Part shown: positions 6,862 to 56,323 of the stretch, one piece after another | Layout: every line of letters starts with the position of its first letter | Position numbering within the stretch: the stretch's first letter is position 1 | IMG/VR virus record: IMGVR_UViG_3300005527_000046 | Location: 1-64,000 of that record | Reading direction: 5' to 3' (one strand) | Length of the DNA: 64,000 nt | From: a virus | Lineage: Duplodnaviria; Heunggongvirae; Uroviricota; Caudoviricetes | Program-made: the position numbers and the translations under genes | The notes under the pieces: generated by a model | Told to the model about the DNA's origin: nothing | Databases searched by the model: none | Seen by the model: only the letters and a program-made list of their open reading frames with translations

Positions 6862-6998
6862 TGTTTAGTAGCTCAGTTGGTAGAGCGTCTGACTGTGGCT
6901 TTTTAGTTTAATGTAAAACTATAGTTAACTATATTATAGGTTCAATTCCTATAAAGGTCTTAATCAGAATGTCCCTGGTTCGATTCCAGGCTAGACAG
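6862..6998 (+). tRNA. tRNA gene interrupted by a roughly 64-nt insertion in the anticodon loop (possible anticodon GUG or CUU depending on insertion point)
   Basis: Perfect cloverleaf apart from the loop: acceptor TGTTTAG/CTAGACA, D-arm GCTC-AGTTGGTA-GAGC, anticodon stem TCTGA (6888-6892) / TCAGA (6964-6968) separated by 71 nt, variable ATGTC, T-arm CCTGG-TTCGATT-CCAGG, discriminator G. Confidence 0.5.
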
Positions 6999-24903: not shown

Positions 24904-24975
24904 ATGACCAAGCCATTTAGTATTGTATGTGAAGATTATACTGTTTATATGATGGTGGGACCATCAAATTGTGGT
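24904..24975 (+). CDS. pnkp: Pnkp exon 1: N-terminal 24 codons ending in the first half of the kinase P-loop (MTKPFSIVCEDYTVYMMVGPSNCG)
   Basis: Short ORF ending in G-P-S-N-C-G; joining to 26289 recreates GPSNCGKS (Walker A GxxxxGK[ST]); exon ends in T as required for group I 5' splice sites. Confidence 0.5.
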
Positions 24976-26288
24976 AGTACAAATTTTGCCTAGTTTTATA
25001 TGTTAATTTTAGAGTAAACTACTTTTATAAATTATTATAAAAGTAGTTATGACATACTCTCAAGAATTAAGAAATATAGCTTTAGAAATGTATCAATCCG
25101 GAATTAGTTCAAGCAATATAGCTAATGAATTAAATATAAATCCTAGAACCGTTTTAAACTGGATACCTAAAGAACTTATAAGATCTATAATACCTCCTTA
25201 TTCTAAAGAAGTAATAGATAAAGTTTTAGATATGTATAATTCAGGCTTAAGTGCTAATAATATAGCAATTAAATTAGGATTAAATAAAAAAACCGTTCTA
25301 AGATGGATTCCTAAAAACCTTAAAAGATCTGTAAAGGATTATGATTTAGGTTATGAAAGAAACCATAACTTTTTTAGAGATATTAAATCTGAACAACAAG
25401 CTTATTTTTTAGGCTTAATAACCGCAGATGGAAGTATATCTAAAACAGGAACATTAGGCTTAGAATTAAAGCATTCTGATGGTTATTTAATAGAAAAATT
25501 TAGAGATCTTTTATCTCCTAATGCTAAAATAAGTTTTTCATCTAGAACTAAAGTATATAAAGGAAATTCTATAATAAGTGAAACTAGCTATCTTAAAATC
25601 ACTTCTAGACATTATTTAGAAGATTTAGCAAGATATGATATTGTTCCTAATAAAACTTATCTAGATATAAGATTACCTATTTTTGATTCAAATTTAATGA
25701 ATCATTATATAAGAGGTTTATTTGATGGAGATGGAAGTGTTTATACTCGTAGTAAATATAAATCTTTATTAACTGTTACTTTTGTTGGTGGAGAGCTTTT
25801 ATTAAATCAAGTAAAAGACTATTTAAAATTAAATTTAGATCTAAAAGGAAATCTTAATATAAGAGCAAGACAAACTAATTGTTTTGATTTTTCTTTAACT
25901 ACTCAAGAAGATATACATAAGTTTAAAGAATACATCTATAAAGATGCAACTATATTTCTTAAAAGAAAACATGCAAAATTTTATAATGAAATTATTGCCA
26001 CATAAGTCTGTGAATTGCTGGGATAACTTGAAGGTTAATTAACTACAACATAATTAGTAATAATAAGTGTGAATGTTTAAAAATAATTAATTATAAGTCA
26101 ATCAGCAGCCAAGTGTCCTAGTAATAGGATAAAGGTTCAACGCATAGTACATGGAGTCCTATTTATATAGGATAGTAAAGTACCAAGAGTGCAGACTACT
26201 AGTTAAACTTAACTGGTAAAGATATATGCTGGACTACTAAGTGATTAGTAGAACTAAGGGATAAAAAGCCTTTAGGTTAACAAAATTG
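24976..26288 (+). mobile_element. candidate group I intron carrying a LAGLIDADG homing-endonuclease ORF, inserted in the Pnkp P-loop codons
   Basis: Last exon base U, last intron base G (26288); GC-rich structured 3' part (26006-26288) with GACUA-type and AAGAUAUA-type core-like elements; internal ORF 25049..26005. Confidence 0.5.
25049..26005 (+). CDS. LAGLIDADG homing endonuclease with two N-terminal HTH repeats
   Basis: Two LAGLIDADG motifs (YFLGLITADGSI and IRGLFDGDGSVY); duplicated N-terminal module (SxISSSNIANELNINPRTVLNWIPK / LSANNIAIKLGLNKKTVLRWIPK). Confidence 0.75.
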   Translation: MTYSQELRNIALEMYQSGISSSNIANELNINPRTVLNWIPKELIRSIIPPYSKEVIDKVLDMYNSGLSANNIAIKLGLNKKTVLRWIPKNLKRSVKDYDLGYERNHNFFRDIKSEQQAYFLGLITADGSISKTGTLGLELKHSDGYLIEKFRDLLSPNAKISFSSRTKVYKGNSIISETSYLKITSRHYLEDLARYDIVPNKTYLDIRLPIFDSNLMNHYIRGLFDGDGSVYTRSKYKSLLTVTFVGGELLLNQVKDYLKLNLDLKGNLNIRARQTNCFDFSLTTQEDIHKFKEYIYKDATIFLKRKHAKFYNEIIAT

Positions 26289-28628
26289 AAGAGTTTCATT
26301 TCAAAAGAATTAGAGTTACAACTAAAAGCTAATAATACTGATGTTACTATTCTTTCATCTGATGATATTAGAAGAGAATTATTAGATGATTATAGTATTA
26401 ATAAATATGATCCAAGAATGCTTGAAGTGTCTTCTCAAGCTTTTAATTTGTTATATGCTAAGCTTAGAAATTACATCAGTTATCCAGTAAATAAGAAGTT
26501 TGTAATCATTGATAATACTGGTTTGAACCAACAATTTAGAACTGACATTCTTAACATCTGTAGAGATAATAATTATAAGGTTGTCTGTATCTTGTTTGAT
26601 TATAAGAACGGAGAAGACTGGTTTGTTAATGATGGTGGTGATAAGTTTGTTATTCAAAAGCATTTAGACAGATTGCAGAAACATGTGTTTAAAGAACTGA
26701 AAGCTAAAGACTATCACAAAGTTATAAGAGTCACAGATAGGATTGAAAGTGTTAATGTTACTTATATACAAGATAAGAATAACTTACTTGTAGATGGTAA
26801 TAACTACACTGTCATTGGTGATGTTCATGGTTGTGTTGATGAGTTAAAACAGCTTATTAGTAACATTAAAGATGAACATAATGTGCCAATCTTGATGGGT
26901 GATTGGATTGATAGTAAACTTGGCAGCGTAAGTTGTAATGCAGCTATTATTGATTACTTATTAGATAATCCTCAAATACTACTTGTTAAAGGTAATCATG
27001 AAGAGAACTTATATAAGAATTTAAATGACTTAACACGGGAGAAATTAGATAATAAATTCTTTAATAGTAGACAATTAATCTATGACTTTCCAGAGTATAA
27101 GACTAAGTTTATAGAACTTTATAATAGAAGTTATACTAGTATTAGAGGTCAAGGCTTTATTGTTACTCATGCTCCTTGTAAGAGTAAGTACTTGTTAACA
27201 AGTCTTAATAAGATGACTAACTTATATTATACGACTGAAGAGAAGTGTGATCTTATTAATGAGATATATACTGACAAGTATTATAATAGCTGCTGGCCTC
27301 TTCACTTATATGGTCATCTAACATTTGATAGACCTGTTAAGACTAGATTTAGTATTGGTCTTGACACTGGTGTTGGTTATGGTGGTGTGTTAACTGGTTA
27401 TAATGTTGCTACTAGAAAGTTTATTATTGTTCAATCTACCTTAGATAATAGTCTTAAACAACTTGATAATCTTACTAAGTTTAAGTATCCTGTACAAGAC
27501 TTAGAAGTTAAGTTAGATGATGATGATACTAGAAAGTTAAGTAGTTTTATCAGAAACAAGGTGCCTTATATCAGTGGAACTATGTGTCCTGCTGATAAGA
27601 CTGAAACAACCTTAGAAGATATTAAAACTGTGTTAGCCTACTATGCTTCTACTGGACAAACACAAGTGTTAATACAACCTAAATACATGGGTAGTAGAGC
27701 ACAAGTATTATTAACTAGAAATAGTTATGAGGTGTTTACTAGAAGTGGCTTTAAGTTAAAACATACACCTGAATTAGACACTGCTATACAAGCACTAGAA
27801 GATAATGTATCCAATGAGTTAATGACTTGGCTTAATAGTTTAGGGCCTTATACTTCAACATTATTAGATTGTGAGTTGATGCCTTGGTCTTATCTTGGTA
27901 AAGGTTTAATTGAGGATACATTTGAATCTTATTATTATAGTCATAAGTTACACATTGAAGCTATGATTAAACATGGTTTTTATACTGATTTAGAATCTTA
28001 TAAGATTAGTGATGATTATGTTAATAAGGTGCCATCAGCAAACAAACAAGTTGGTAATCTTAATCAATGGAGAAACACTAGTAATCTAGATAATCTAAAT
28101 ATCTTTGGCACTGAACTAGATAAGTATGCCTCAACTGAAGCACCTTACTTTGTTCCTTTTAATATTCTTAAAGTTGAGTCTGAAGATAAAATTCTTTATA
28201 GTAATAGTGAGTTTAATAGATTTAATAACTTTGAGTTGTTAAGCTTATTACAAACACCATTACATGTGGTTGATGTTAATGATTTAACAGAAGGGATAAA
28301 AGTACAAAACTTATATAGTCACCTCGAAGGTATTGTTGTTAAACCTTACTACAATATTGAAGGCCAAGCACCATATATTAAAGTTAGAAACATAGATTAT
28401 TTAAGATTAGTTTATGGTCATGACTATACTTCTAAGTTGGATAAGTTCATTGATAAGAAAAACATTAAAGGTAAACTTAGGGTGTCTATTAATGAATGGC
28501 AACTTGGTAATGCTTTATTAGATATGCATTCCTCTGAGTTTGTTGAATCTAATAAAGAGTATGTTAATACTTTAATTAGACTAATGTTTGAGTTGAAAAA
28601 AGAACAAGGACTAGATCCAAAATTATAA
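26289..28628 (+). CDS. pnkp: Pnkp exon 2: polynucleotide kinase - metallophosphoesterase phosphatase - ligase-like RNA repair enzyme (ORF track 26286..28628 with apparent TTG start)
   Basis: N-terminus aligns with T4 Pnk after the P-loop (KSFISKEL...SSDDIRREL); central GDVHGC / GDWIDS / GNHE metallophosphatase motifs; C-terminal KYMGSRA nucleotidyltransferase-like motif; no ATG start and no P-loop in this ORF. Confidence 0.65.
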   Translation, partial: KSFISKELELQLKANNTDVTILSSDDIRRELLDDYSINKYDPRMLEVSSQAFNLLYAKLRNYISYPVNKKFVIIDNTGLNQQFRTDILNICRDNNYKVVCILFDYKNGEDWFVNDGGDKFVIQKHLDRLQKHVFKELKAKDYHKVIRVTDRIESVNVTYIQDKNNLLVDGNNYTVIGDVHGCVDELKQLISNIKDEHNVPILMGDWIDSKLGSVSCNAAIIDYLLDNPQILLVKGNHEENLYKNLNDLTREKLDNKFFNSRQLIYDFPEYKTKFIELYNRSYTSIRGQGFIVTHAPCKSKYLLTSLNKMTNLYYTTEEKCDLINEIYTDKYYNSCWPLHLYGHLTFDRPVKTRFSIGLDTGVGYGGVLTGYNVATRKFIIVQSTLDNSLKQLDNLTKFKYPVQDLEVKLDDDDTRKLSSFIRNKVPYISGTMCPADKTETTLEDIKTVLAYYASTGQTQVLIQPKYMGSRAQVLLTRNSYEVFTRSGFKLKHTPELDTAIQALEDNVSNELMTWLNSLGPYTSTLLDCELMPWSYLGKGLIEDTFESYYYSHKLHIEAMIKHGFYTDLESYKISDDYVNKVPSANKQVGNLNQWRNTSNLDNLNIFGTELDKYASTEAPYFVPFNILKVESEDKILYSNSEFNRFNNFELLSLLQTPLHVVDVNDLTEGIKVQNLYSHLEGIVVKPYYNIEGQAPYIKVRNIDYLRLVYGHDYTSKLDKFIDKKNIKGKLRVSINEWQLGNALLDMHSSEFVESNKEYVNTLIRLMFELKKEQGLDPKL

Positions 28629-28662
28629 ATAATAATAATAATAATAAAGGAGAAATAACAAT

Positions 28663-28878
28663 ATGCCTTTCTGGAAAGCAAGAGTACTTGATCATGATGA
28701 TTAAGGTAGAGAGTCTGAATCTGTATACTATGTATCAGAACCAGATGAATTAGAAGCTTTACTTACTACATATGATGTTCATAGTATGAGTGATGATTTG
28801 CATGAAGGGACAGATGATGTTCCTAATGTTGATTTAAAAGAGATTAATGATGATACTGCTAGTAAATCAGGCGGCTAG
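28663..28878 (+). CDS. small acidic protein whose frame from an RBS-preceded ATG contains an in-frame TAA at 28702-28704 (MPFWKARVLDHDD*GRESE...SGG)
   Basis: AAAGGAG at 28646-28652; 13 codons, TAA, then 58 open in-frame codons to TAG with no early alternative start. Confidence 0.35.
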
Positions 28879-29199
28879 ATTAGTAACTTCTTTGGTAGGC
28901 AATAAATAAACTATTACAAGTTAGTTGTAGCAATATAATTAACTTGTAATAGCTATAATAAGGTATTAATTAATATGTATTTAATTGTGGCTGGTTTAAG
29001 TGATTTAGATGATATTGATACTGCTAAGTATGCAGATATAAACACCAATAAAAAAGGCTTCTGTTGCTATTAGGTATGCTCAAATAATGACAAGTAGAAC
29101 TGATGAAGGTACTTATGATAATGCTTTTGTTTATGAGTTAAAGAGTAATAGTATTAAATTGTTATCAGCAAGTTATAGACGTAAAGAGAATGGTTTAAT

Positions 29200-30408
29200 A
29201 TGATAATTGACGTTAATTCTAGCAACTTTAACATGTCTTACATTCTTAATAAGAATCCTAGTAGTGGCTTGCTTATTAGAGATTGTAGAAAGGGTTTTGT
29301 AGTGGGTAAGTATGTTAATCCTTTAACATATATGGCTGTCTTTGAAGAAGGTACTGGACAGGATTCCTTTGAGAAAGAAGGTAATTATTTAGTTTATAGA
29401 GGTTATTGTTCTGCTGAAGCTGCTCTTACAGTAATAACAGCATTGTTTGATTGTATTAAAAAAGATAGTAATAATAAGTATGAGGAAGGACCTTCTTTAA
29501 ATACTATTACTATTAAATGTTTAGATATTGATGTTAAACATTTATCTATATTTAACACTGAAAGCTTTAACATTACAGAGTATACAATAGCTGATAATTG
29601 TAATTTAGTACAATTAAATGTTACTAATAATAGTAGTTTAATTGATGTTTTAAGGTATACAGCTTTAATTCTATTCATGCAACTTGTTAAGGATAATGTG
29701 AGTTATCTAACACTTGATCAAGTTAATGTTTATGCTAACATCATCAAAAAAAATGACAACATTCCTTTTATTGTTAGACATAGATTTAGAGGCATTCTTG
29801 AAGATAATATGTCTAAAAAAGTAGTACCTTTATTAAATAATGATTCAATTAAACTATCTAATATTGGCAGAAATGAACAACAAAGATTTGCATTTGTAAG
29901 TCAACACATTTTATTTAAAAATAGTGTTTTAGATATTGGTTGTGGTCCTGGAAAATATATTAAAGTGTCTAAAGCTGCAAAATATGTTGGTGTAGATATA
30001 GATGAAAAGTGTATTGAAAAAGCTAAAACTAAGGCTAGCCATTTGAATGTAGATGCTTCCTTTTATACTGATTGGGCATTTGCTTTAGAACAATTAACAG
30101 AGCCTACAACAGTCCTTTTAATAGAGTTTATTGAACATATTGAAAAGGATGTAGCAATGCTTATATTAGAAAAACTTTGTTTATGTGAACAGGTTAAGCA
30201 AATACTTATTAGTACTCCTAATAAAGATTTTAATAAGCACTTTAATATTGCAGATGATGGTCTTAGGTTTGAAGACCATATCTATGAAATGACAGAAGAG
30301 GAGTTTAAAAGACTTCCTGGAAAAGATATAACTTGGGGAGATTCAGTTGATGGATGTCCTATGACTTTGTATAAAGATTTAAGATTAGAGGTAAGTATTC
30401 TTGACTAG
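29200..30408 (+). CDS. hen1: Hen1-like RNA 3'-terminal 2'-O-methyltransferase (MTase domain in C-terminal half)
   Basis: SAM motif I VLDIGCGPGKY; Hen1-specific metal-binding motifs LLIEFIEHIEKD (E-x-x-E-H) and RFEDHIYEMTEEEF (H-x-F-E-x-T-x-x-E-F); located immediately downstream of Pnkp as in bacterial Pnkp-Hen1 operons. Confidence 0.7.
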   Translation: MIIDVNSSNFNMSYILNKNPSSGLLIRDCRKGFVVGKYVNPLTYMAVFEEGTGQDSFEKEGNYLVYRGYCSAEAALTVITALFDCIKKDSNNKYEEGPSLNTITIKCLDIDVKHLSIFNTESFNITEYTIADNCNLVQLNVTNNSSLIDVLRYTALILFMQLVKDNVSYLTLDQVNVYANIIKKNDNIPFIVRHRFRGILEDNMSKKVVPLLNNDSIKLSNIGRNEQQRFAFVSQHILFKNSVLDIGCGPGKYIKVSKAAKYVGVDIDEKCIEKAKTKASHLNVDASFYTDWAFALEQLTEPTTVLLIEFIEHIEKDVAMLILEKLCLCEQVKQILISTPNKDFNKHFNIADDGLRFEDHIYEMTEEEFKRLPGKDITWGDSVDGCPMTLYKDLRLEVSILD

Positions 30409-31573
30409 TTTATTAGCATATCAACAACCAGATGGCAGTATTGATTTTAGAAGTAATGCTGCTACTTGTCCTAAGGTAAAAGCCGGCGTTTATAGAGCTT
30501 TAAATTCTATGGACAGAGGAATTTATTTAAGTCCTACAACTGAATTTAAATATCTAGATGAATACTTTCTATTAGATGAATTTGAAGAGTTAGTCTTAGA
30601 AAGTTTTAAACAGTCTAATAAGAGTTTAGCTGTTATATATCTTGGTCTTAAGGGTAGTGGAAAAACTAAAAGGGCGCATAAACTGGCCCTAGACTCAGGA
30701 ATGCCAGTGCTAATTATTGATAACTTAGATATTATTAATAGTCAACGTTGGAATGATATTGTTGGCAGTGATACATTAAATAACTGGATCATCTTTGTGG
30801 ATGAGTATGAAAAGAAGTTAGACAATGATAATTCAGTTGCCTTCTTAAATTGGCTAGACGGGTCAGTTAGTACTAAGCAATTGTTTATATTGATTGGCAA
30901 TGAACAAGCTAAGACTAAGTATAGTGATCCTCTTTTAGATAGACTCTCAAGGGTCTTATGGAAGAAAGAATTTGGCTCATTAACCAATGAGCATGTTGAA
31001 ACATTAGTAAATAAACTCTCCAAGAGAGAAGAAAAGTCTGAGTTATTAGATCTGCTTAATAATATTCCTGTGTTGTCTATGGATAATACGATGCAGATTA
31101 TTAGAATAACTAATATGTTTCCAGATAGGTCTATTGAGTCTTTACTTACTAAACTAAATATTAGCTTTAATAGTGTTGAAGAGTTTACATTTGTAGATGA
31201 GTTTTATAAACCTTTAACATATGGTGAAGATCATATTGGACTAACTATTACTAGAAGTGGTCCTATACTTAATGTTGCAAGAATTATTAGATTCTATATA
31301 GAATCTGATGATATTATAGAAAGGTTTAACCCTGAAGATAGTGATAAAAAGATCTATAGAATAAAGGTTGAAGCTCCTGCAAAGACTATTAAACTTACTA
31401 AAGTTAGTAGATTTATATATAAATTTGAAGCTCCTTATAGTGTTTGTTATAATTATACAGAGTGGGATGAAGATGCGTGGCAGCCTTCTGACAAAACTAT
31501 GACTGTATTCTTATATAAAACAATGGCCTGGAATTTATTAGCTAATCCTAATAGTAATACTTACTATATGTAG
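30401..31573 (+). CDS. P-loop NTPase (Walker A GLKGSGKTK, Walker B IIFVDEYE), translationally coupled to hen1
   Basis: Walker motifs; 8-nt overlap with upstream gene. Confidence 0.5.
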   Translation: MTSLLAYQQPDGSIDFRSNAATCPKVKAGVYRALNSMDRGIYLSPTTEFKYLDEYFLLDEFEELVLESFKQSNKSLAVIYLGLKGSGKTKRAHKLALDSGMPVLIIDNLDIINSQRWNDIVGSDTLNNWIIFVDEYEKKLDNDNSVAFLNWLDGSVSTKQLFILIGNEQAKTKYSDPLLDRLSRVLWKKEFGSLTNEHVETLVNKLSKREEKSELLDLLNNIPVLSMDNTMQIIRITNMFPDRSIESLLTKLNISFNSVEEFTFVDEFYKPLTYGEDHIGLTITRSGPILNVARIIRFYIESDDIIERFNPEDSDKKIYRIKVEAPAKTIKLTKVSRFIYKFEAPYSVCYNYTEWDEDAWQPSDKTMTVFLYKTMAWNLLANPNSNTYYM

Positions 31574-31578
31574 TAAAT

Positions 31579-31827
31579 ATGATTCAAAGACTTCCTAAGA
31601 TTGGTGAGGTTATAAAGATATATTGGTCTTCTCCTGAAGGAGAACAAAGAGCTAGAGTAATTAGTATTGTTCCTTATACAGGAAGATATTCTAATCACTT
31701 TACTCATATTATTAGACTAACTTCTAATACTAATAGAGGTTGGACTGAAATTGCTTGGAACAAAGATAAGCCTATTTGTGAGTGGTTTATACATAAAAAA
31801 ATGTATAAGCATGTTATGTGTTTCTAG
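31579..31827 (+). CDS. hypothetical protein
   Basis: ORF track. Confidence 0.4.
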   Translation: MIQRLPKIGEVIKIYWSSPEGEQRARVISIVPYTGRYSNHFTHIIRLTSNTNRGWTEIAWNKDKPICEWFIHKKMYKHVMCF

Positions 31828-32014
31828 CTTTTATTATGATCAAGCTTATTGGGTGTATAAATATTTAAATAATAGAAATATACCTTATAAGCTTGATTGT
31901 AATATTCATCTTGATGATGGCTTTCAATTGTTTGTACCAGAAGAATTTTTGTACAAGATTAGAAATGATTTGTGGTATATTGAAAGGCGGTTAGTGGAGT
32001 TAAATGATGGTTAA
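31751..32014 (+). CDS. hypothetical protein
   Basis: ORF track. Confidence 0.35.
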   Translation: MLGTKISLFVSGLYIKKCISMLCVSSFYYDQAYWVYKYLNNRNIPYKLDCNIHLDDGFQLFVPEEFLYKIRNDLWYIERRLVELNDG

Positions 32015-32540
32015 GATATATGTAATTAGTGACACTCACTTTGGTCATGAGAACAGTCTTAAGTGGCTTGATAGTGAGGGTAATAAGCTAAGACCTTTTG
32101 ATACAGTTGAAGAGCTAAACAACACTATGATTACTAATTGGAATAATACTGTTAAGCCAGAAGATCATGTGTATCATTTAGGAGATGTTGTTATTAAAAA
32201 GGAGTACTTAGAGTTAGTAAAACAACTTAATGGTCATAAGCGTCTGGTCAAAGGTAATCATGACCAACAGACCCTTAAAGAGTATATAGCTGTAGGTTTT
32301 CAAGAGATCTATGGAGTAAGAGTATTCCCTGGTTTAAAGTGTATTTTAAGTCATATACCAATACATCCAGAATGTCTAAAAGAAGACTGGATAAATGTAT
32401 CGGGCCACCTTCATTCCAACAACCTTTCTGACAGAAGATATATTAATGTTAGTGTTGAGCAGATAAATTATACTCCTGTTTTGCTAGAAGATATATTAAA
32501 ACAAAGAAGAAATGAAAATATCAATTCAAGAAGAAGTTGA
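32004..32540 (+). CDS. metallophosphoesterase (calcineurin-like)
   Basis: N-terminal IYVISDTHFGHEN and later GNHD / GHLH motifs. Confidence 0.55.
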   Translation: MMVKIYVISDTHFGHENSLKWLDSEGNKLRPFDTVEELNNTMITNWNNTVKPEDHVYHLGDVVIKKEYLELVKQLNGHKRLVKGNHDQQTLKEYIAVGFQEIYGVRVFPGLKCILSHIPIHPECLKEDWINVSGHLHSNNLSDRRYINVSVEQINYTPVLLEDILKQRRNENINSRRS

Positions 32541-46036: not shown

Positions 46037-49000
46037 TTAGGTATTAATAATTCCATCAATAACTTTAGTTCCTCTCTTTATATTGAACTGTTGTAATGCA
46101 ATTTGTTCACTATCTCTAGAACTTGTTTGTGTAAATTCTAAGGTTGTTTGACCTTTATCTGTTTTTCCTTTAGTAACCTTTGTTGCTGCTTGAATGTTTG
46201 GTGTTCCATCATTTATAAGTTGAATGTGTGGATTAGGTACTATATGACTTCCAACTACATTTAATGCTAAGTTTTTCTTAGTATTAATCTCATTAACATC
46301 ATTAGCCATTTGACCCATCTTAGTACTAACCTCTCCTAACTTAACAATTGCTTCTCTTGTTATAGCGTTTATCTCTGTTGATCCTATAATAGGAGCAGAG
46401 GTTATCTTTCTATTTTCAAGTTCTACAACTCTATTGATCTGACCTTCCCATGCTTGTATTTGTAATCTTTCTGTAACAGACATATATTTAGATACTAATG
46501 CATGATTTAACTTGTCATCCATTCTTGTGTTCCAAAATTGTTTACCTGTTACTAGTTGATTATAAGCTTTACCTCTAATAGCAAATGCAAAGTCCTGAGA
46601 TGGATCAACAGATCCTGGTCCATATCCTTCAGCAGTAGCAGCATATCCAGTCATAGGAGCATCAAAAGATGTAACAAATCTACCAGCAGTCTTTCTGCCA
46701 GTTGGATCATCTAAGGTGTCTATTTGTGCCATCCATTCTTGTTTCATTGCATCATTTACTGTGCCTTGAAATAGAGGATTTCTATAGTCTTTATCCCTAT
46801 ACTTTGTATCATTATATATTTGATTGGCAGGTTTAAATAGATAAGATCCTGGCGCTCCAAACATCTGTGTTGGTAAGTTACTAAGATTAGATGCAAAGTC
46901 ATCTGCTGTCTCAGGACTGTTAAGTATCCAAACAATTTGTACTGCAGTTAATACTAAAGAAGCAACTAAACCCCAAGGTCCTGCTGCTACTCCAGAAATA
47001 GCTTTTAATCCAGCTCCTGCAAATTTTGCACCAGTTACTAATCCTTTAATTGCCATTCCTTGTGCTGTCTTTTGTATTGCAGCGTTTCTTATTGCTGTAC
47101 TAGCACTCTGTATAAGACCTACCTTAGCAACTTGTTCTGTTATCTTAGAAGTGATAGTCTTTGCAACTATAGTTTGTCCAATCTTATTGGCTATAAATGG
47201 AGTTACTAATGTACTACTTAAAGAATCTAATGCCTGTAAACTAGCACCTTCTAATCTGTTATTCTTAGAGTCTAATGAGTGTCCTAAACCAACTCCAAAT
47301 ATTAAAGCACCAATAGCTGCAACTCCCGCATTAATTAGATTGCCTGTCTTTAAGTAGTTAAGAGTTCCTCCAATACCTAAAGCTAAACCTCCAACAATGT
47401 TTATAACTCCACTTTGGTTTTGAATATTTCTTATTACTTGTCTTCCTCCTTGATAAAAGTCATCCATCTTAGAAGTAATATATCCACCCAACTCAGGACT
47501 TAAAGAAGATAGGGATGATCCAGCTAAGTCAAATACACTTCTACCAGCTAAGGTTAAACCAGCTAATCCTATAGAAACTCCCCAAGTTTTACTTGCTTTG
47601 AATAATGCTATAGATGATGCAGCTAAAGTAATACCTACAGCACCAGCAGTAATTCTTCCTCCAGTTCCATTATTCTTAAATAGTAAATCATAGCCAAAGA
47701 AACCAGCAGCTAGTCCTCCTATTCCAGGAATAATACTCTTCTGAATTGACTGATTCATTAATAATGTACCAAAGAATAAAGCCCCCCATATATTGTCAAA
47801 GCTTTCTTTGGCCATTTCTTCTCTGGCCATTTCTTTTTCTCTTTCTCCTGTTTTACTAGAAGCTACACTAGCTGCAGCTCTAAATGTTAATAAGTTAGTA
47901 CTAACAAACATAGCCATTTGATAGCCATTCATTAGTACTGTTCCCATTCTAGATAAACCCTCTAGAAATGTTAAACCTGCAGTAGTCTGTAATGCTTTAG
48001 GTGGCACTCCTACTGGCATACTTCCCTGAAGTCCAGATCTAGTATTTTGTTTTATATCAAGTTCAATAGCTTTTGCAACTTCTTCTTGTAACTCTTTAGT
48101 GGGGACATTAAACATACCTCCACCATATTTTCTTACATTGTCTAATACTTCTTTAGATGCATCTGTTGCTTCTAAAGTCATTCTGGTTATTAGATCTCTG
48201 TTAGTTCCTCCACTAACTATATTTAATAATCTATCAAAGACAGCAGTTAAACCAGTTCTCTTTGTTGAAATGATTGTGGTTAATCTATCTTTAATCTGTT
48301 CTCTAAGATGTAACTTGTTATTAAATCTTTGATCTACTGATACTTTATTAACATAATCTTCATCAATTATTGCTGTGCTGTTTAACTCCCTTCTAACAGA
48401 ATTAGTATAAATATTGTCTGCATCTTGTATAAAAGCTGCTTTAATTCTTTCATCAATAACATCATAGTAACTATCAATAACAATATCAAATTTGGCAGCA
48501 TATACTTCTGTCATAAGATCAATAGAATGTCTCATATTAGGGCTTCTATCTTTGCCAAATATATTGAAACCTCCTCCAAATTTTCCTGCCGCTTTAGATA
48601 TGAATTTATCAGCTTTAGCTTCTAATAAATCATCATAAGTAAAGCCTTTATAATATTTATCTACAAAGTCTGCTTTAGCTATAGGAGTTTTAGATTCAGC
48701 ATTATAAGCATCATATTGACCCTCTAAATAAGCATCAAGAACTTGCTTATTAGTATAATCATCTAATAAGTGTTCTGTTATTTTATGTGTTGTATGATTA
48801 TAAGTTATAGTTTCATCTAGGGTTTCTGAGAACATTACAGATTTAAATTCTCTAGCATGAGTTCTAGCTATTCTGTCATCTCTAGTAGATAATCTAGTTG
48901 TTTGACTTGGTGCTGATCTAGTTTCTAACTCATCATAAAAGTCATTTAATCTTGTTATTTGTTGAGTGTGTGCTTGTCCATAGTTCTTTGAATAGTCTCT

Positions 49001-52000
49001 ATAAGCACTATCAAACTTCATAGATAAAGCTCCACTTAATTCATTGATTTGACTTGTATATTTCTTAGCTTGATGATCTGTTAAGCCTTCAGCTATTGCA
49101 AATACAACTTGTGTTCTTCTTAGTAATAAGAATTTACCTGCCGCCGCTTTTAATTCTTCTGCTTCATATAAATGTTTAGAGAACCACTTTCCTTCATCAA
49201 AGTACTTATGTTGTTGTTCCCATAATAATGTATTGTCTTTTGTTACTTGACCTTGACTGGCTTTAGTGGCAGCAACAACTGATATAGCAGCAGTAACTAA
49301 ACCAAGAGAACCTATTCCAACTGCCATTATAGGCAGCCACATAAATGGTGGAAGAGCTTGAGTTAATCCTTGCAATGAAGATGTGTCTCTAACTTTTGTT
49401 AGAAATTCTCCAGCTCTTTCAAAGAAGCTTTTATTTGAATCATATTGATTTGCTGTTGATTGAATTGCAATTCCTTGCATCTCCATAAAAGCATTTTCAT
49501 TATCACTGTCTTGTATAGACATTTTAGCTGCTATAAAAGGATTAGAGTTAGATGCTAAACCACCTATTTGTTTTACAGTTATTTCACCTCCCATAAAGAA
49601 ATTTTGATTTATCTCTCCTAATCCAGTCTGACTTCCATTGCTTGATATATCTTTTAATGCTTTATAGAACTTACCTTGCATATCTGGTGAAGCTATGTTC
49701 ATATTATTCATTAAGGTATATAAAGCTATGTTTACATTAGTACCATAAGATAATGCTTGTAGTCTCTTATATCTTTGGTTGAGAGACATTGCTAAAGCTT
49801 TATTAGTAGTCATAGCTTCTAATGTATATTTATTAGGAGATGTAAACTTAATTCTATCTTTACCTGATCTTGTTGGTTGGCTATATACAGCAGTAATAAT
49901 GTTAGAAGCAAACTGTCTTAGTTGTGCTTGATTGTGTCCAGCAGCATCATCAATTCCTCTTAAATTAGCAATAATATTCTGTGCTAAGAAACCTTTCTTA
50001 GCTAATTCTTGTAGTCCAAATACAGATGACATACTATACATTGCAGATGAGAAATCTTGTGATGCTGATTGTATTTGGAAATAGTCTCTAAGTCTTACAT
50101 CACTATCATCTGGTCTTATTGTTATACCACCAACAGCCACACCAATAAAGGTATTTGGTGAATTTACAATTATTAAATTACTCAATTGTTTTAGTGAGTT
50201 GTTTATTGCTCCTTTAGTTGTACTGTCTGGATTTATTAAGAATTCACCTTTACTATTATGTAAATTAGGTCCTACTAAACCTTTAGCAATGTCATAAGAA
50301 TGGGCTCTATCATACTTTGTTTGTAGTTTAACAAAGTCTACTACACCTTTTCTAAAGTTTGCCCAAGGTGTGTTGCTGTCTTCATCTGCTCCTATTAAAG
50401 CATCTTGAAAGTCCTTATAACCCATGCCTTGAGATGCCCAATTTAAGCCATGAAATGTTAGTCCAAGTAAGGCTGTAGTTCCGCCTAATCTAGCCCATCT
50501 TTCTATATGAACTCTATTACTAGCAGATCTATTTATACTCATTCCTTTTAACACTGCTGAGGCTGGTTGATTGTTAGCAGGATTACTAAACTTATCTAAC
50601 TCAGCTAATACTGCTGAAGCTTGGTTATTCTTTATAATTGAGTTTAAGTCTGTACCAGCACTTATATCTAAGGACTGTAAACCTTTATAGACATTATTAG
50701 ATCTATTACTTGTTATTTGTTTAATGTTTGAATATGGATCACTTACATTAAAAGCATTTTTGAATATCTTTCCTTGTGCATCTTCTACTGCTTGAATAAT
50801 AGGAGAGTTGCCCATTCCTTCTTCTATTATTATTTGTACTTCTCTTGCTTCCATGTTTAACTTATATGTTTCATACTTTAAGCTTAGAGATTGTATAAAG
50901 CCAATATTCTTCTTTCCTATTGGCACTTGTTGTAGTCTTTCTACAACAGTTAATCTATTCCTAAATCTCTCAACAATTTGTTCAGGATTAATATCTGCAA
51001 AGATTAAACTCTTAGGATTAAAGGATGTAACTCCTGCTGTTAATGCGAATAAGGTTGCACCAAAAGCAACAGTTGTCATTCTTCTTGTATTGTCATATTT
51101 ATCTTCTGTTTGTTTTGTTAAATCTCCAAATGCTATTTCTGGATTTACTTTGCCTGATGTTGGATCTGTTATAAAATGATTCCACAAAGCTCCAACAGCT
51201 AGTAAGCCTAATCCTTTTCCTACTTTATTTTCTAATGTTCCTGTTTGGAATACAGCACTTTGTTTTACAAAGCCTCCAAACTTGCCTAATGTATTTCTAT
51301 ATAAACCTTTAAGACTGTTATTAGAATACATCCAAGCAACTAAAGGATCTATCTTTGTTTTGTCAAATCTTGCACTTGTAATATTTAATTCTGACTCTAA
51401 CATTGCTAGTCTTCTAGAGGCTGCTATTGTACCTTTAGCATAACTAATACCTCCTATAAGAGCAGCTCCTGCCATAATAGAAGCACCTCTTAAAGCAAAG
51501 TTTCCATCTTTATCTTCTTTCTTATTTGTAAAAGGTTGAGATAATGTATTAATAACACTATATAAGTGATTACCAATAGCACCTCCCATAAAGGCACTAA
51601 ATACAACAGGCACAAATGATGTTGATCTTAATCTTAAGCCTGGCATCCTAAAGTCACCAGTTGTTAGATTAAGAGACTGAGCAGCTATATAGAAAGGCAA
51701 TGTAGCAATCCCTAAGAACTTATCTCTGGCAGCCCTTGTTGATTGTGTTATTAAAGATTCAGTGGCAACAACAGTTCCAGTTGATTTAAGTATTTGATGG
51801 TTTCTTCCCCATATTCTATTCCTTACTAAGGTGTTAGATACTCCTATACCAACTCCACTCCATAAGGCTACTTGGCTATAGATGTTATAATAATCTTGTA
51901 AGCTTAAGGAGTCCTTATTCCCTTCATTAAGTATTAGACCAGTTCCTAGATAACCAGTTTTAATGGTTACATTATCAGCACTCTTAGCATTCATTGCAAA

Positions 52001-55000
52001 TGCAATTGGAAAGCTTACATTAATAGGTGCTACTCCAACAGCAGGAGGTCCTTGTAAACCTAAGTTAACAGTTGTATAACTACTACCATTACTATCTACT
52101 ACCTTTTTAATTACACTGTAATATTGAAATATAGGCAGAGGAGATTGTGTAGCAGTTACATATGCAGTGCTACCTTTTTGAGATGATGTAATTGGATTAA
52201 TAATCTTACCTAAAGCTACTGCTAATAAGGCAGCATTAACTTCAAGTGGTGATATAGAATCACTAATAGAAGCTGAACCACCATCTGAGGTTCTAGCTTG
52301 ATCTATTCTTTTATTAACATGTTCTACATAACTTCCAAGTCTAGCTATAGCTGTTTGATTTGTTTCATCTAGTTTTGGCCCATTTATATCACCTTGGAAA
52401 GGGCTTAGTCTGTTCCAATAAGCTATTCCTAATCCTATAAGACTAATTGCTGTAGTTGTAATAGGATTTCTACCAAATAGGTTAGCCGCTCCTTGTAATC
52501 CTTTTAGTAATGTATTACCTAACATACTTGTAACTTTGTAGTTACTATATCCAAGTTTACTACCACTAACCATATGTAATGAGTGAGCCATATTATCTAT
52601 AGTTGTAGTAACACCAAATGCTATGGCAGGAGCAGCTAAAAATGCAGTAGATAAAACAGCAGAACCCATTAAGTTTCTTTCATTGTTAATGGTAGAACTA
52701 ATCACATATCTAGCAGTTTGCATTGCTGCTAAGGTTAAGCCTAAACTAATAGAGAAAGATGTCCAGTTCTTTGCAACTTTAGCATTAAGAGCACTTAGTC
52801 CTGTTATATTTCCATTTTCCCTTACAACATTAAAACTTAATTCTTTACCACTAATTAATTTAACTGTAACTGCATTTTTACCAGCAGACAAAGTTGTAAG
52901 TTCAGCCATAGTTGCAGACTGAACAGCTTGACCATTTACTTCTGCTATATTATCTAATAAAGCTTGTCCAGTAAACATCTTTCCATGTATTTCAGGTGTG
53001 CTAGTAGATGCATGATCATACGCCCATCTAACTATTCCAGCCATTGTAACTAAACTTTGAGTACCTAATACAAAGTTAGCAACATGATCATTAGCACCAG
53101 CCATCTTTACTAATTCAGCAGCAGAGAAGAAGTTAGTGCTTTGTAATTCAATTGATGTGTTAGTTGTTCCTCTATTTAGTTGTATTTGAGCTAAGGTAGA
53201 TGTTAGTAAGGAGGCTCCAGTTGATTGAGCAAACTCTGTTAATACTAATTGAGGTATGAATAAAGCACCAATAATCCACTTAGCAGCAGCTAATTTAGTA
53301 CTAGATATCTTCATACCTACATAACTATTTCCCTTGTCTAAATGGTTTAATAAGAAACCAACACCACCTGAGCTGTGTGTTTTATTAGCATAAGTATATA
53401 AAGCATCGTCTAAAGTTATAGTTCTAAGGCCTACTCTTTTGCTTGATAAAGCTTTCCATTTAGCCTGATATGTTGCTTCATTGTCTAATAATTCTTCCAC
53501 TGATACCGCATCTAATGCATTAGTATTAAACACATCAAAACCTCTAGCAGATCTATTCTTTGCAGAATCTATAGAGTTATTTGTTCTTACTTTTACATTA
53601 TCTTCTAAGTTTATTTCTGCTTGTGAGTATGTTTTACTAATCTTACTAATGTCTTCTAAGTCTCTTTTAGATTGGCCACCTCTAGTATTAAAAGATAATA
53701 TAGATCTGGTCATTGTTGCTATATGATTCATTATTCTGAAGGCAGGATAGGAGGCTTTAGTACCATTCTCACTGAACAACATAAACTCATTAGCTGCGCC
53801 CCAAAAACCTTGATTGTTTAATGATGCATTAACATATCTGGCAAAACCTTCAATGTCTAATAAGTTACCAATCATAGGAGCTGTTACATTGTCTTTTCTG
53901 CCAGCAAATATTCCCCATGCCCAAGGCATAGGGACTAAGTTGATTACTCCTTGTATCTTCTTAGCAAGCATCATGTTTCTTTCTATAGAAACATTGGTTA
54001 TCTTTAATTCATATTGTTTGTTAACTGCATCATTAATCTCCTTAACAACATCAGATGTTGGTTTGATAGTTGCATCATTACCTCTAAGAATATCTATGGC
54101 TCTGGGTATATTAAAAGTTTTACCAGAAGCTGTTGTTATGTTTACTGTGTTCCAATCAATTGATTTGGCTCCACTAGTTATAACTTCTCCAGCTCTATCA
54201 ATAATCTTTATGTCAGCAGGTGATTGTAATACTTCTAGGTAATCATTAGTAGCAGAAATTAAGGCTTTAGATTTATTAGAGCCTAATGTATATGGATTAA
54301 TCTTACTTATTAAGAATTCTCTTGCAGTTGCTGAGAAGAAGAAACCACCTCTTTGTCTTTGATAGTTATCTAAATAATAAAGAGAGAATGTAGGATTATC
54401 TAATGAATAGTAAGCAGTTGTTGCACCCTTAACTTGTCTTTCAATGACAGACATTTTAAAGCCAATATTATCATTGTCTGTTCCTCCTAATGCCCACTTA
54501 GCAGCTTTATTTGTATCAGCAGCTTTAATAAGAGCCTCTTGACTATTAAGTAAAGCTCTAGAAGCCATTGCTTTAAGTGGCTCTCCAACTGCTAGATAAA
54601 CTCCAATAGAGGAGGCGGTAGCCAATACAGTAGCAGCACTATTTGCAAGTAAATCTTGAAAGAAACTTGTCTTAGTTGTAAAGTAATTTTCTCCATCATC
54701 TTTGTAGCTTCTTAGTACTGGATTATTAGTTAAATATGATTGATCAATGAGCGCACCAACTGCACTAAATAGAGAAGGAATTGGTCCTCTTTCTTCTTGT
54801 AATACTCTACCCATACCATTAGGTATAAAGAAGAATTCATTTATTCTACTCATTAATGATGGTGAATTGACAGCAAAATCAAATGCTTTAGCTACTGCTA
54901 CTTCATCTCTTGATAAGTTATTATTAGTCTTACTAGCTCTAAGTATGCCTTCATATGTTCCCATATCTTCAGCATCAACAACAGATGTAAACCTACCTGA

Positions 55001-56323
55001 TGCTCTCATAGAAGCATTATATCTAGCTAATTCAAATTGTTGTGAATGAGTTTTCTTATTACTAATAACTAAACCTCTATATTCCTTATCAGTGTCATAT
55101 AAAGGAGCTAATAAAGGATTGTGTATACCCTTAGCTCTAGCATTAATAACAGCCTTACTCTCAAAACTACTGTTTATATCATCTAAGTTTACATGTAATA
55201 ATCCTTTACCATCTTTAGGCGCATCATATACATTTTGTAATATTTGTTCTTCTACTTCTGGATCTAGATGAGGAAATAACCTTTTCATTCCTGTTAGTTC
55301 TCTAATCTGTCTACCATCTGCAAGTTTATAATCCTTCCAATTATCTTTTACATTTTGACTGTTAGGCATTATAACAGCAATAGTTTTTGTGTCTTTTGTT
55401 ATTGTTGTTTGTCCTGGCTCTAATACAACGGCTACCTTCCATAAAACTTTAGGTACTTCTACTCCATTAATACTCTCAACATAACCATTCTTACCAATAC
55501 CTCCTTTACCAGCACCACCTGTTATAATTTGAATCTCTCTTTCGGTATAACCAAATAAAGGAATGCCAAAAGGTCCTTTACCTTCATGTACTTTATTGTT
55601 TAAATAGTGTTCTAAATCTGCCCAAGGACCTGCATTAACTTCATGTGCTTGTGCTAACATGTTAGTCATTACATATGTAGAAGAGTTAATTCCTACAGTA
55701 CTTGTAAATGCAGCAGAGTTAGCCAAGTGACCTCTATCAAATCCTTTAAATCCTGTAAAGTCAACCTTCTTAAAGTTAGACGGTAGATTTGTATCATTTC
55801 TAAAATCATTCTGTCTACTAACATTACCTAAGTTATTTTTTGTCAGTTTAAAAGCAACCCAATTAGGCCTGCCTTTTTCATTGTTGTAACTAGTAACAAA
55901 TTGAGATCTGCCTTCTACTTTATTTTCTAATATGTAGTTATTACTGTCAGATGTATTAGCTCCCGTTGGATTGCCAATAAGTGATAGATTAGAATTGTTT
56001 TTATAGTTATAGCTGTCATTGCCAATATAACTTTGTTCTACTATTCTTTTATTTGTCTCTACATGTACATCTAAACCAGTTAGATCAAAAGAATAACCAA
56101 CCTTAGGAGCATTTCCATAGCCTCTTAGATAATCATTGTATCTACTTTTATTATCACTAAATGCAGAGAAGTTTCCTACTCTATCCTCAAATAACTTTCC
56201 TTTATATTGCCAATCCCAATTACCTTTGTTATAAGATGATGTTGCATCCTTAATAGCAAATGAGCCATAACCTAAAGTTGTGGCTCCTATTCCAGTGGCA
56301 ATTGCAATATTAAGTAAACTCAT
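46037..56323 (-). CDS. giant virion-associated protein (3428 aa): N-terminal signal peptide + DNA/RNA non-specific endonuclease (His-Me finger, DRGH) domain, long Gly/Ala/Ser/Thr-rich multi-TM tape-measure-like core
   Basis: Uninterrupted 10.3-kb ORF; N-terminus MSLLNIAIATGIGATTLGYGSFA; FKGFDRGHLANSAAF...N...GPWADLE matches the Serratia-nuclease (Endonuclease_NS) active-site region; many hydrophobic G/A-rich segments; sits next to terL. Confidence 0.7.
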   Translation of the reverse strand: MSLLNIAIATGIGATTLGYGSFAIKDATSSYNKGNWDWQYKGKLFEDRVGNFSAFSDNKSRYNDYLRGYGNAPKVGYSFDLTGLDVHVETNKRIVEQSYIGNDSYNYKNNSNLSLIGNPTGANTSDSNNYILENKVEGRSQFVTSYNNEKGRPNWVAFKLTKNNLGNVSRQNDFRNDTNLPSNFKKVDFTGFKGFDRGHLANSAAFTSTVGINSSTYVMTNMLAQAHEVNAGPWADLEHYLNNKVHEGKGPFGIPLFGYTEREIQIITGGAGKGGIGKNGYVESINGVEVPKVLWKVAVVLEPGQTTITKDTKTIAVIMPNSQNVKDNWKDYKLADGRQIRELTGMKRLFPHLDPEVEEQILQNVYDAPKDGKGLLHVNLDDINSSFESKAVINARAKGIHNPLLAPLYDTDKEYRGLVISNKKTHSQQFELARYNASMRASGRFTSVVDAEDMGTYEGILRASKTNNNLSRDEVAVAKAFDFAVNSPSLMSRINEFFFIPNGMGRVLQEERGPIPSLFSAVGALIDQSYLTNNPVLRSYKDDGENYFTTKTSFFQDLLANSAATVLATASSIGVYLAVGEPLKAMASRALLNSQEALIKAADTNKAAKWALGGTDNDNIGFKMSVIERQVKGATTAYYSLDNPTFSLYYLDNYQRQRGGFFFSATAREFLISKINPYTLGSNKSKALISATNDYLEVLQSPADIKIIDRAGEVITSGAKSIDWNTVNITTASGKTFNIPRAIDILRGNDATIKPTSDVVKEINDAVNKQYELKITNVSIERNMMLAKKIQGVINLVPMPWAWGIFAGRKDNVTAPMIGNLLDIEGFARYVNASLNNQGFWGAANEFMLFSENGTKASYPAFRIMNHIATMTRSILSFNTRGGQSKRDLEDISKISKTYSQAEINLEDNVKVRTNNSIDSAKNRSARGFDVFNTNALDAVSVEELLDNEATYQAKWKALSSKRVGLRTITLDDALYTYANKTHSSGGVGFLLNHLDKGNSYVGMKISSTKLAAAKWIIGALFIPQLVLTEFAQSTGASLLTSTLAQIQLNRGTTNTSIELQSTNFFSAAELVKMAGANDHVANFVLGTQSLVTMAGIVRWAYDHASTSTPEIHGKMFTGQALLDNIAEVNGQAVQSATMAELTTLSAGKNAVTVKLISGKELSFNVVRENGNITGLSALNAKVAKNWTSFSISLGLTLAAMQTARYVISSTINNERNLMGSAVLSTAFLAAPAIAFGVTTTIDNMAHSLHMVSGSKLGYSNYKVTSMLGNTLLKGLQGAANLFGRNPITTTAISLIGLGIAYWNRLSPFQGDINGPKLDETNQTAIARLGSYVEHVNKRIDQARTSDGGSASISDSISPLEVNAALLAVALGKIINPITSSQKGSTAYVTATQSPLPIFQYYSVIKKVVDSNGSSYTTVNLGLQGPPAVGVAPINVSFPIAFAMNAKSADNVTIKTGYLGTGLILNEGNKDSLSLQDYYNIYSQVALWSGVGIGVSNTLVRNRIWGRNHQILKSTGTVVATESLITQSTRAARDKFLGIATLPFYIAAQSLNLTTGDFRMPGLRLRSTSFVPVVFSAFMGGAIGNHLYSVINTLSQPFTNKKEDKDGNFALRGASIMAGAALIGGISYAKGTIAASRRLAMLESELNITSARFDKTKIDPLVAWMYSNNSLKGLYRNTLGKFGGFVKQSAVFQTGTLENKVGKGLGLLAVGALWNHFITDPTSGKVNPEIAFGDLTKQTEDKYDNTRRMTTVAFGATLFALTAGVTSFNPKSLIFADINPEQIVERFRNRLTVVERLQQVPIGKKNIGFIQSLSLKYETYKLNMEAREVQIIIEEGMGNSPIIQAVEDAQGKIFKNAFNVSDPYSNIKQITSNRSNNVYKGLQSLDISAGTDLNSIIKNNQASAVLAELDKFSNPANNQPASAVLKGMSINRSASNRVHIERWARLGGTTALLGLTFHGLNWASQGMGYKDFQDALIGADEDSNTPWANFRKGVVDFVKLQTKYDRAHSYDIAKGLVGPNLHNSKGEFLINPDSTTKGAINNSLKQLSNLIIVNSPNTFIGVAVGGITIRPDDSDVRLRDYFQIQSASQDFSSAMYSMSSVFGLQELAKKGFLAQNIIANLRGIDDAAGHNQAQLRQFASNIITAVYSQPTRSGKDRIKFTSPNKYTLEAMTTNKALAMSLNQRYKRLQALSYGTNVNIALYTLMNNMNIASPDMQGKFYKALKDISSNGSQTGLGEINQNFFMGGEITVKQIGGLASNSNPFIAAKMSIQDSDNENAFMEMQGIAIQSTANQYDSNKSFFERAGEFLTKVRDTSSLQGLTQALPPFMWLPIMAVGIGSLGLVTAAISVVAATKASQGQVTKDNTLLWEQQHKYFDEGKWFSKHLYEAEELKAAAGKFLLLRRTQVVFAIAEGLTDHQAKKYTSQINELSGALSMKFDSAYRDYSKNYGQAHTQQITRLNDFYDELETRSAPSQTTRLSTRDDRIARTHAREFKSVMFSETLDETITYNHTTHKITEHLLDDYTNKQVLDAYLEGQYDAYNAESKTPIAKADFVDKYYKGFTYDDLLEAKADKFISKAAGKFGGGFNIFGKDRSPNMRHSIDLMTEVYAAKFDIVIDSYYDVIDERIKAAFIQDADNIYTNSVRRELNSTAIIDEDYVNKVSVDQRFNNKLHLREQIKDRLTTIISTKRTGLTAVFDRLLNIVSGGTNRDLITRMTLEATDASKEVLDNVRKYGGGMFNVPTKELQEEVAKAIELDIKQNTRSGLQGSMPVGVPPKALQTTAGLTFLEGLSRMGTVLMNGYQMAMFVSTNLLTFRAAASVASSKTGEREKEMAREEMAKESFDNIWGALFFGTLLMNQSIQKSIIPGIGGLAAGFFGYDLLFKNNGTGGRITAGAVGITLAASSIALFKASKTWGVSIGLAGLTLAGRSVFDLAGSSLSSLSPELGGYITSKMDDFYQGGRQVIRNIQNQSGVINIVGGLALGIGGTLNYLKTGNLINAGVAAIGALIFGVGLGHSLDSKNNRLEGASLQALDSLSSTLVTPFIANKIGQTIVAKTITSKITEQVAKVGLIQSASTAIRNAAIQKTAQGMAIKGLVTGAKFAGAGLKAISGVAAGPWGLVASLVLTAVQIVWILNSPETADDFASNLSNLPTQMFGAPGSYLFKPANQIYNDTKYRDKDYRNPLFQGTVNDAMKQEWMAQIDTLDDPTGRKTAGRFVTSFDAPMTGYAATAEGYGPGSVDPSQDFAFAIRGKAYNQLVTGKQFWNTRMDDKLNHALVSKYMSVTERLQIQAWEGQINRVVELENRKITSAPIIGSTEINAITREAIVKLGEVSTKMGQMANDVNEINTKKNLALNVVGSHIVPNPHIQLINDGTPNIQAATKVTKGKTDKGQTTLEFTQTSSRDSEQIALQQFNIKRGTKVIDGIINT

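Follow-up and report, generated by a model that had tools for sequence, protein, structure and literature searches.

The window, that is, the whole 64,000-nt stretch of DNA analysed here, is phage-like, with 29.5% G+C, the standard genetic code and TAA as its predominant stop codon. To judge from contigs of 216-243 kb, the phage is a jumbo phage. Positions 28663-28905 of the window are an 80-codon gene, referred to here as gene A, a member of an unnamed small-acidic-protein family of related freshwater jumbo phages. Gene A is located between pnkp and hen1, and is followed by a second small gene, gene B. The features of the locus are as follows.

24904-24975, plus strand: pnkp exon 1, split from exon 2 by an insert at 24976-26287
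26288-28628, plus strand: pnkp exon 2 (phosphatase and ligase domains), the upstream neighbour of gene A
28646-28652, plus strand: Shine-Dalgarno sequence AAAGGAG of gene A, with ATG 28663 10 nt downstream; AGAGGAG in the intact allele of contig L017
28663-28701, plus strand: gene A codons 1-13 (MPFWKARVLDHDD), the first strand of a predicted beta-hairpin
28702-28704, plus strand: premature TAA at gene A codon 14, a derived C-to-T change, in the predicted hairpin turn
28705-28875, plus strand: gene A codons 15-71 (GRESESVYYVSEPDELEALLTTYDVHS...SKSGG), 57 sense codons containing the family core ES.Y...EP...A.LT..D.H....H
28876-28878, plus strand: second premature stop, TAG, at gene A codon 72, a derived G-to-A change
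28879-28905, plus strand: gene A codons 73-80 (ISNFFGRQ) and the true stop, TAA 28903-28905; the conserved C-terminal motif W-ISN-FF-G, now cut off
28911-28952, plus strand: perfect 19-bp hairpin with a GCAA loop, just 3' of gene A (z -3.97)
28975-29203, plus strand: gene B, 75 aa in relatives and frameshifted here
29200-30408, plus strand: hen1 (Hen1_N and methyltransferase domains), 402 aa, intact, the downstream neighbour

The original prediction described a ribosome-binding site, an ATG and 13 codons before an in-frame TAA, followed by 58 open codons that ended in TAG and had no early start codon of their own, and proposed that the TAA is read through. The layout of AAAGGAG, ATG 28663, 13 codons and TAA 28702 was borne out on the sequence, as was the lack of an early start, the first in-frame ATG, GTG or TTG downstream of TAA 28702 being ATG 28786, 27 codons in. 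The open run was found to comprise 57 codons (28705-28875) instead of 58. TAG 28876 is not the end of the gene, since it aligns with a TGG codon of the relatives and the frame runs on as ISNFFGRQ to the TAA at 28903. The last sense codon before that terminator, CAA 28900, corresponds to a stop codon (TAA) in more distant relatives and is common to the window and the intact L017 allele.

Protein family and genomic neighbourhood of gene A

When the conceptual 71-residue product was used as the query, intact 79-aa proteins were recovered with 100% coverage and 79-90% identity (E 4e-36 to 3e-31), and a profile search together with a DNA-level scan identified further, more distant members of 68-87 aa (profile E 1e-26 to 5e-4), as well as one 52-aa family variant with an internal deletion. 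Intact homologues of gene A encode acidic proteins of 77-81 aa that share the core ES.Y...EP...A.LT..D.H....H, and most members also have the C-terminal aromatic motif G-W-ISN-FF-G. The family is real and is under purifying selection outside the window lineage, with pairwise dN/dS values of 0.18-0.23 among the intact homologues. The proposal that a single gene spans TAA 28702 was upheld by this comparison: the homologues have a sense codon there (CAA, GAA or GAT), conservation extends across the position, and none of them begins at the internal ATG. Profile matches to two repetitive proteins, P0007 (3164 aa) and P0009 (480 aa), were treated as spurious.

Neither protein A nor protein B had a match above the cut-off in Pfam or PHROGs, and GenBank phages gave no match either to blastn (distant mode) with 28300-29300 or to tblastn with protein A. 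No relatives were found by IMG/VR scans with Pnkp, the DNA pattern and the family alignment, and none by a first DNA-pattern scan of the metagenome contig collection. BLASTP comparison of protein A with the 3428-aa protein of the window detected no similarity. The ORF encoding that large protein (46037-56323, minus strand) has an Endonuclease_NS (non-specific nuclease) match and is located among structural-looking genes.

AlphaFold (AF2) modeling of protein A predicted, with confidence (pLDDT 84), a small alpha/beta fold consisting of strands at residues 3-11 and 17-25 (beta-hairpin 3-25), a helix at 29-42 and a strand at 55-61. A Foldseek search of the PDB with this model returned nothing with E below 0.65. 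The top Foldseek matches, none of them significant, were chains of the phi29 p56 UDG inhibitor, which hints weakly that protein A could act as an inhibitor or mimic of the small acidic kind.

On every longer contig with a close family member (L004-L008, L013, L017, L018 and L028), gene A lies directly between pnkp and hen1, and in relatives it is often followed by a second small gene of 75-81 aa. The homologue on L009 is placed in the same way. The exception to this position is the distant member P0008, whose 2.6-kb contig contains neither pnkp nor hen1. The domain sets of the flanking proteins, Pnkp (kinase, metallophosphatase and PNKP_ligase) and Hen1 (Hen1_N and methyltransferase), are like those of the bacterial Pnkp-Hen1 and Pnkp1-Rnl-Hen1 RNA repair systems, and in the jumbo phage XacN1 PNKP and Hen1 are encoded by adjacent ORFs, 197 and 198, as described in the available text of the respective reports (PMC3675462, PMC4411300; PMC5852040). 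In the phages of this study, pnkp and hen1 are separated by a conserved gene for a small acidic protein and, in many cases, by another small gene as well; in the same available text (PMC3675462, PMC4411300 and PMC5852040), no component of this kind is described. Synteny is the basis for any link between protein A and RNA repair.

In the window, the P-loop of pnkp is split between GPSNCG and KSFISKEL by the 1312-nt insert at 24976-26287, which carries a LAGLIDADG/HTH homing-endonuclease ORF (25049-26005), while the gene is uninterrupted (809-814 aa) in L017, L016, L004 and L007. The terminal U of pnkp exon 1 and the terminal G of the insert are as in group I introns; an Rfam search of the insert gave no intron family. 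Other mobile-element-like matches included a weak Intein_splicing match in a 728-aa ORF (57163-59349, minus strand), and intein and LAGLIDADG matches in the ribonucleotide reductase just upstream of the window (L010:1-2509).

Gene B is intact in L004, L005, L017 and L018 (75 aa) and in L009 (72 aa), and is absent from L007, L008 and L013. In the window it carries an extra A in the run at 29050-29055 (A5 to A6), which leaves ORFs of 32 aa (28975-29073) and 38 aa (29087-29203), and a homopolymer indel is the simplest reading of this lesion. The NKKAS found in the relatives would be regained exactly through a +1 slip on AAA-AAA-G. Another contig, L024, changes to unrelated sequence at window position 29166, within gene B. 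In L016, a 243-kb JGI contig with a Hen1 92% identical to that of the window, both genes A and B are cleanly deleted, and 75 nt, including the conserved hairpin, lie between the pnkp stop and the hen1 start. The deletion in L016, the losses of gene B elsewhere and the gene B frameshift indicate that the two small genes are dispensable.

All relatives retain the core of the hairpin at 28911-28952 (AAGTTAGTT/AACTAACTT), even L016, from which genes A and B have been lost. No T run follows the hairpin, and TATAAT motifs occur within and after it. Within the module, the hairpin may act as a terminator, a promoter or a processing element.

Coding signal and recurrence of the stop codons

A codon-usage model trained on the long ORFs of the window preferred the gene A frame for the first 13 codons, for the 27 codons from the TAA to ATG 28786, and for the last 30 codons. 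The 57-codon segment scored at the 95th percentile of true coding segments, a score that was matched by none of the off-frame segments and by 0.13% of the antisense segments. A 57-codon open run by itself would be compatible with chance open frames in non-coding DNA, with P ~0.007 per position and about 35 such runs per shuffled strand. The composite pattern of a Shine-Dalgarno sequence with ATG, at most 25 codons, a stop and at least 57 open codons occurred 0.33 times per shuffled window. The original judgement that the open run is beyond chance was sustained by this composite count and by the codon-usage signal on both sides of the TAA.

Three independent assemblies (Logan SRR13827124, Logan SRR9659493 and JGI 3300032093) agree at every base of 28600-29210. 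Another nine contigs, drawn from nine JGI samples, contain the TAA and the TAG as well, and the A6 run of gene B is present in all seven of the contigs that reach that far. No other change in gene A was found among the 12 independent contigs. Because the stops occur in at least 12 independent metagenome contigs, sequencing or assembly error is excluded. The identical sequence in 12 contigs from differing samples and pipelines, the homologues at E 1e-31 to 1e-36 and the strong codon-usage evidence leave practically no room for an artefact, whether as such an error or as chance open frames in non-coding DNA.

Origin of the stop codons and tests of readthrough

The 90% cluster of the window Hen1 yielded a 172-kb ENA scaffold (L017) and its Logan counterpart (L018), and both contain an intact 80-codon gene A (L017:4465-4707) that differs from that of the window at only 2 of 243 nt. 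Both differences create stops, C/T at 28702 (CAA to TAA) and G/A at 28877 (TGG to TAG). Codon 14 is CAA (Gln) in L017/L018 and in L004/L005, GAA in L007/L008 and GAT in L009, and codon 72 is TGG (Trp) in all DNA-aligned relatives (L004, L005, L007, L008, L009, L017 and L018). The TAA at codon 14 and the TAG at codon 72 are confined to the window lineage, with sense codons in all other homologues found, and the sense codons of the outgroups at these two positions show that the stops are derived.

The replacements I9L, V33L and E59K and the stop-to-CAA extension are not specific to the window but are common to the intact L017 allele. The 4 N : 0 S count that had seemed to show relaxed constraint in the window lineage is therefore void, since the intact allele carries all of those replacements. 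Since the split from the L017 allele, the two nonsense changes have been the only gene A events on the window branch.

Comparison of window positions 26352-32526 with L017:2139-8337 showed a mosaic, in which blocks of ~20% divergence alternate with blocks of less than 1% per 200 bp, the 200-bp bins having either 30-47 or 0-5 differences. Genes A and B are both located in a low-divergence block, which indicates that their lesions are recent. These derived, recent and linked lesions are fixed in every contig sampled. The sharp mosaic pattern in itself indicates frequent recombination between co-circulating phages.

A functional interpretation of the stops is that UAA 28702 and UAG 28876 are read through or suppressed, so that full-length protein A is made at a low, conditional level. 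The proposed decoders are a phage or host ochre-type suppressor (anticodon UUA) or the near-cognate tRNA-Gln(UUG). A single ochre suppressor can read both UAA and UAG. This interpretation would account for an ORF that is otherwise intact, with its Shine-Dalgarno sequence preserved, a strong coding signal on both sides of TAA 28702 and a widespread allele. The phage also encodes a tRNA-Gln(UUG), a near-cognate of UAA and UAG, and trace insertion of the ancestral Gln at codon 14 is conceivable.

Programmed readthrough, as in Qbeta A1 at UGA and in MuLV gag-pol at UAG with a pseudoknot, takes place at stops that are conserved, single and usually leaky (UGA or UAG), often with a stimulatory structure after them. 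Gene A resembles such cases in that its in-frame stop is followed by a long coding-like open frame without a start of its own, but its stops are lineage-specific, there are two of them, the first is in the context UAA-G, and no structure follows the TAA, as the 105 nt after TAA 28702 folded no better than shuffled sequences (z -0.31). UAA-G is a strong terminator in bacteria. TAA is the normal stop of this phage, and its real gene ends also use TAAG (n=4) and TAGA.

Further evidence against readthrough came from the comparison with relatives. Neither stop is found in any relative, the nearest allele having CAA and TGG, and two sequential events would be needed for full-length protein A, the second derived stop lying 58 codons downstream of the first; gene B would additionally require a +1 shift. 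No other gene in the 64 kb is interrupted in this way, and gene A, together with gene B, is simply deleted in a sister lineage. The readthrough at 28702 that had originally been proposed is not supported by these findings. Entry into the downstream frame by frameshifting was also rejected, as neither of the other frames is open near the TAA and the homologues are collinear with gene A without a change of frame.

A window-wide scan of coding strands for in-frame stops flanked by coding signal returned only 28702 and 14923. A readthrough pattern shared with the region 13115-15613 had been suggested earlier; the only such stop in that region, TAA 14923, needs no readthrough and is explained by the start of a paralogue, the paralogue alignment beginning exactly at ATG 15028. 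This region consists of successive small genes, among them the paralogues 13325-13552 and 15028-15252 (42% identity), and the open codons 5' of ATG 15028 are outside the homologous region. Reading TAA as a sense codon gave no consistent set of longer genes in the window.

Lak and crAss-like phages recode TAG or TGA with suppressor tRNAs, and in stop-codon reassignment many genes are affected and the codon is no longer used as a terminator. The phage of this study is like recoded phages in being large, in having its own tRNA genes and in having an in-frame stop inside a real gene. It is unlike them in that one gene is affected, TAA is the stop of 46 of the 60 long genes, and no suppressor tRNA was found in ~84 kb. 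In the window and 10 kb on either side of it, ARAGORN and Rfam together identified eight tRNA or tRNA-like genes, including Pro(TGG), Gln(TTG), Gly(TCC) and Ser(TGA) in the window and Trp(CCA) in the 10 kb upstream; neither ARAGORN nor Rfam found a tRNA in the 10 kb downstream. No UUA or CUA anticodon was present in this ~84 kb, which is ~39% of a genome of at least 216 kb, and the limited span of the search leaves some room for a suppressor elsewhere in the genome.

The presence of several aberrant tRNA-like genes in the phage is a further point that could be taken in favour of suppression. Three such genes, at 6897-6960, 9855-9938 and 9969-10031, were scored by Rfam and missed by ARAGORN. 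The first has an anticodon arm collapsed to a palindrome (UAUAGUUAACUAUA, with a loop of roughly 4 nt), the second is class II with an anticodon loop of 6 or 8 nt (UAAAAU), and the third is similar to tRNA-Thr(UGU), with a T arm reduced to a stub. All three are identical in contig L010, and they are intriguing beside a tRNA-repair module.

Gene A lacks the testable defining features of both programmed readthrough and stop-codon reassignment, and functional readthrough or suppression of its two stops is considered improbable. If readthrough did take place, a peptide such as DHDDQGRESESVYYVSEPDELEALLTTYDVHSMSDDLHEGTDDVPNVDLK would be produced, and trypsin cleavage after Arg16 would give ESESVYYVSEPDELEALLTTYDVHSMSDDLHEGTDDVPNVDLK.

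Initiation at the internal ATG would offer another route to a product, with the 30-aa acidic peptide MSDDLHEGTDDVPNVDLKEINDDTASKSGG, translated from ATG 28786, as the functional unit. JGI pipelines call this ORF and the coding potential of the segment is high, but such a signal is accounted for by a gene that is only two mutations away from an intact one. No Shine-Dalgarno sequence precedes ATG 28786, the homologues start 41 codons upstream, and Met42 is replaced by Leu in P0002. The peptide would lack the predicted beta-hairpin and helix as well as the conserved C-terminal motif, and it is highly doubtful that it is the functional product of the locus.

Probable loss of genes A and B in the window lineage

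The most satisfactory explanation, which we regard as very probable, is that gene A is a recent and widespread loss-of-function allele and not a case of programmed readthrough. According to this model, the CAA-to-TAA change at codon 14 and the TGG-to-TAG change at codon 72 would inactivate gene A in the window lineage. Ribosomes would still load at the intact Shine-Dalgarno sequence and ATG and stop at the UAA after 13 codons, and the remaining 66 sense codons, with no start or Shine-Dalgarno sequence of their own, would be essentially untranslated. Since the predicted fold needs residues 3-61, neither the 13-mer nor the 30-aa product from ATG 28786 could replace protein A. Gene B would have been lost through the 1-nt homopolymer insertion, and the lineage would run its pnkp-hen1 module without the accessory genes A and B, like some sister lineages after deletion.

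Gene A of the window is like nonsense (ochre or amber) alleles and young phage pseudogenes in that single-base changes (CAA to TAA and TGG to TAG) interrupt an otherwise intact ORF, and also in having an intact allele in a close relative, a neighbour with a homopolymer indel, and deletions in sister lineages. Unlike typical young pseudogenes, the knocked-out allele is prevalent across many lake metagenomes. The 30-aa fragment was found on 21 contigs, versus two contigs for the intact L018-type Hen1, and identical neighbouring proteins were found in 39-49 index blocks. That the broken allele is common in public data indicates that the loss is not costly, or is at least harmless.

The pattern of substitutions also differs from that of a young pseudogene under neutral drift, as two nonsense hits without any other substitution are more than drift predicts. 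Stops are created by 35 of the 720 possible gene A substitutions and by 6 of the 86 GC-to-AT transitions, and the probability under neutral mutation that both substitutions are nonsense is 0.0006-0.005; however, the site was noticed for one stop, so this probability has to be conditioned on that stop and is then ~0.03-0.07. Because both gene A substitutions are nonsense and gene B was hit as well, the loss was perhaps selected rather than merely tolerated. The excess of disabling hits and the parallel deletions in sister lineages suggest that loss may have been favoured, a selective advantage that we infer from these patterns.

As a counterpoint, the Shine-Dalgarno sequence, the ATG and every sense codon of gene A are still perfect, with no further decay. 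The perfect remainder fits a very young pseudogene, and equally a gene that is expressed through its stops. In a more speculative scenario, the two stops and the +1 lesion of gene B would be decoded by an unseen suppressor or by tRNA-Gln(UUG), making protein A conditional on the tRNA pool of the infection; separately, a host defence may recognise protein A, in which case its loss would be positively selected. We consider this scenario very unlikely.

As a correction to the reading of this genome, the in-frame stops of the window are not to be taken as recoding or as an alternative code, and the pipeline-called ORFs of 30, 32 and 38 aa are fragments of the two broken genes A and B. The new elements of this study, of minor novelty, are an unnamed small-protein family in the phage pnkp-hen1 module and a natural pair of intact and broken alleles. 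The natural double knock-out, together with the clean deletion in a sister lineage, indicates that a successful phage lineage can do without, or may even be selected against keeping, a conserved and hitherto undescribed small acidic protein, and the matched intact (L017) and broken (window) alleles provide a resource on the role of protein A.
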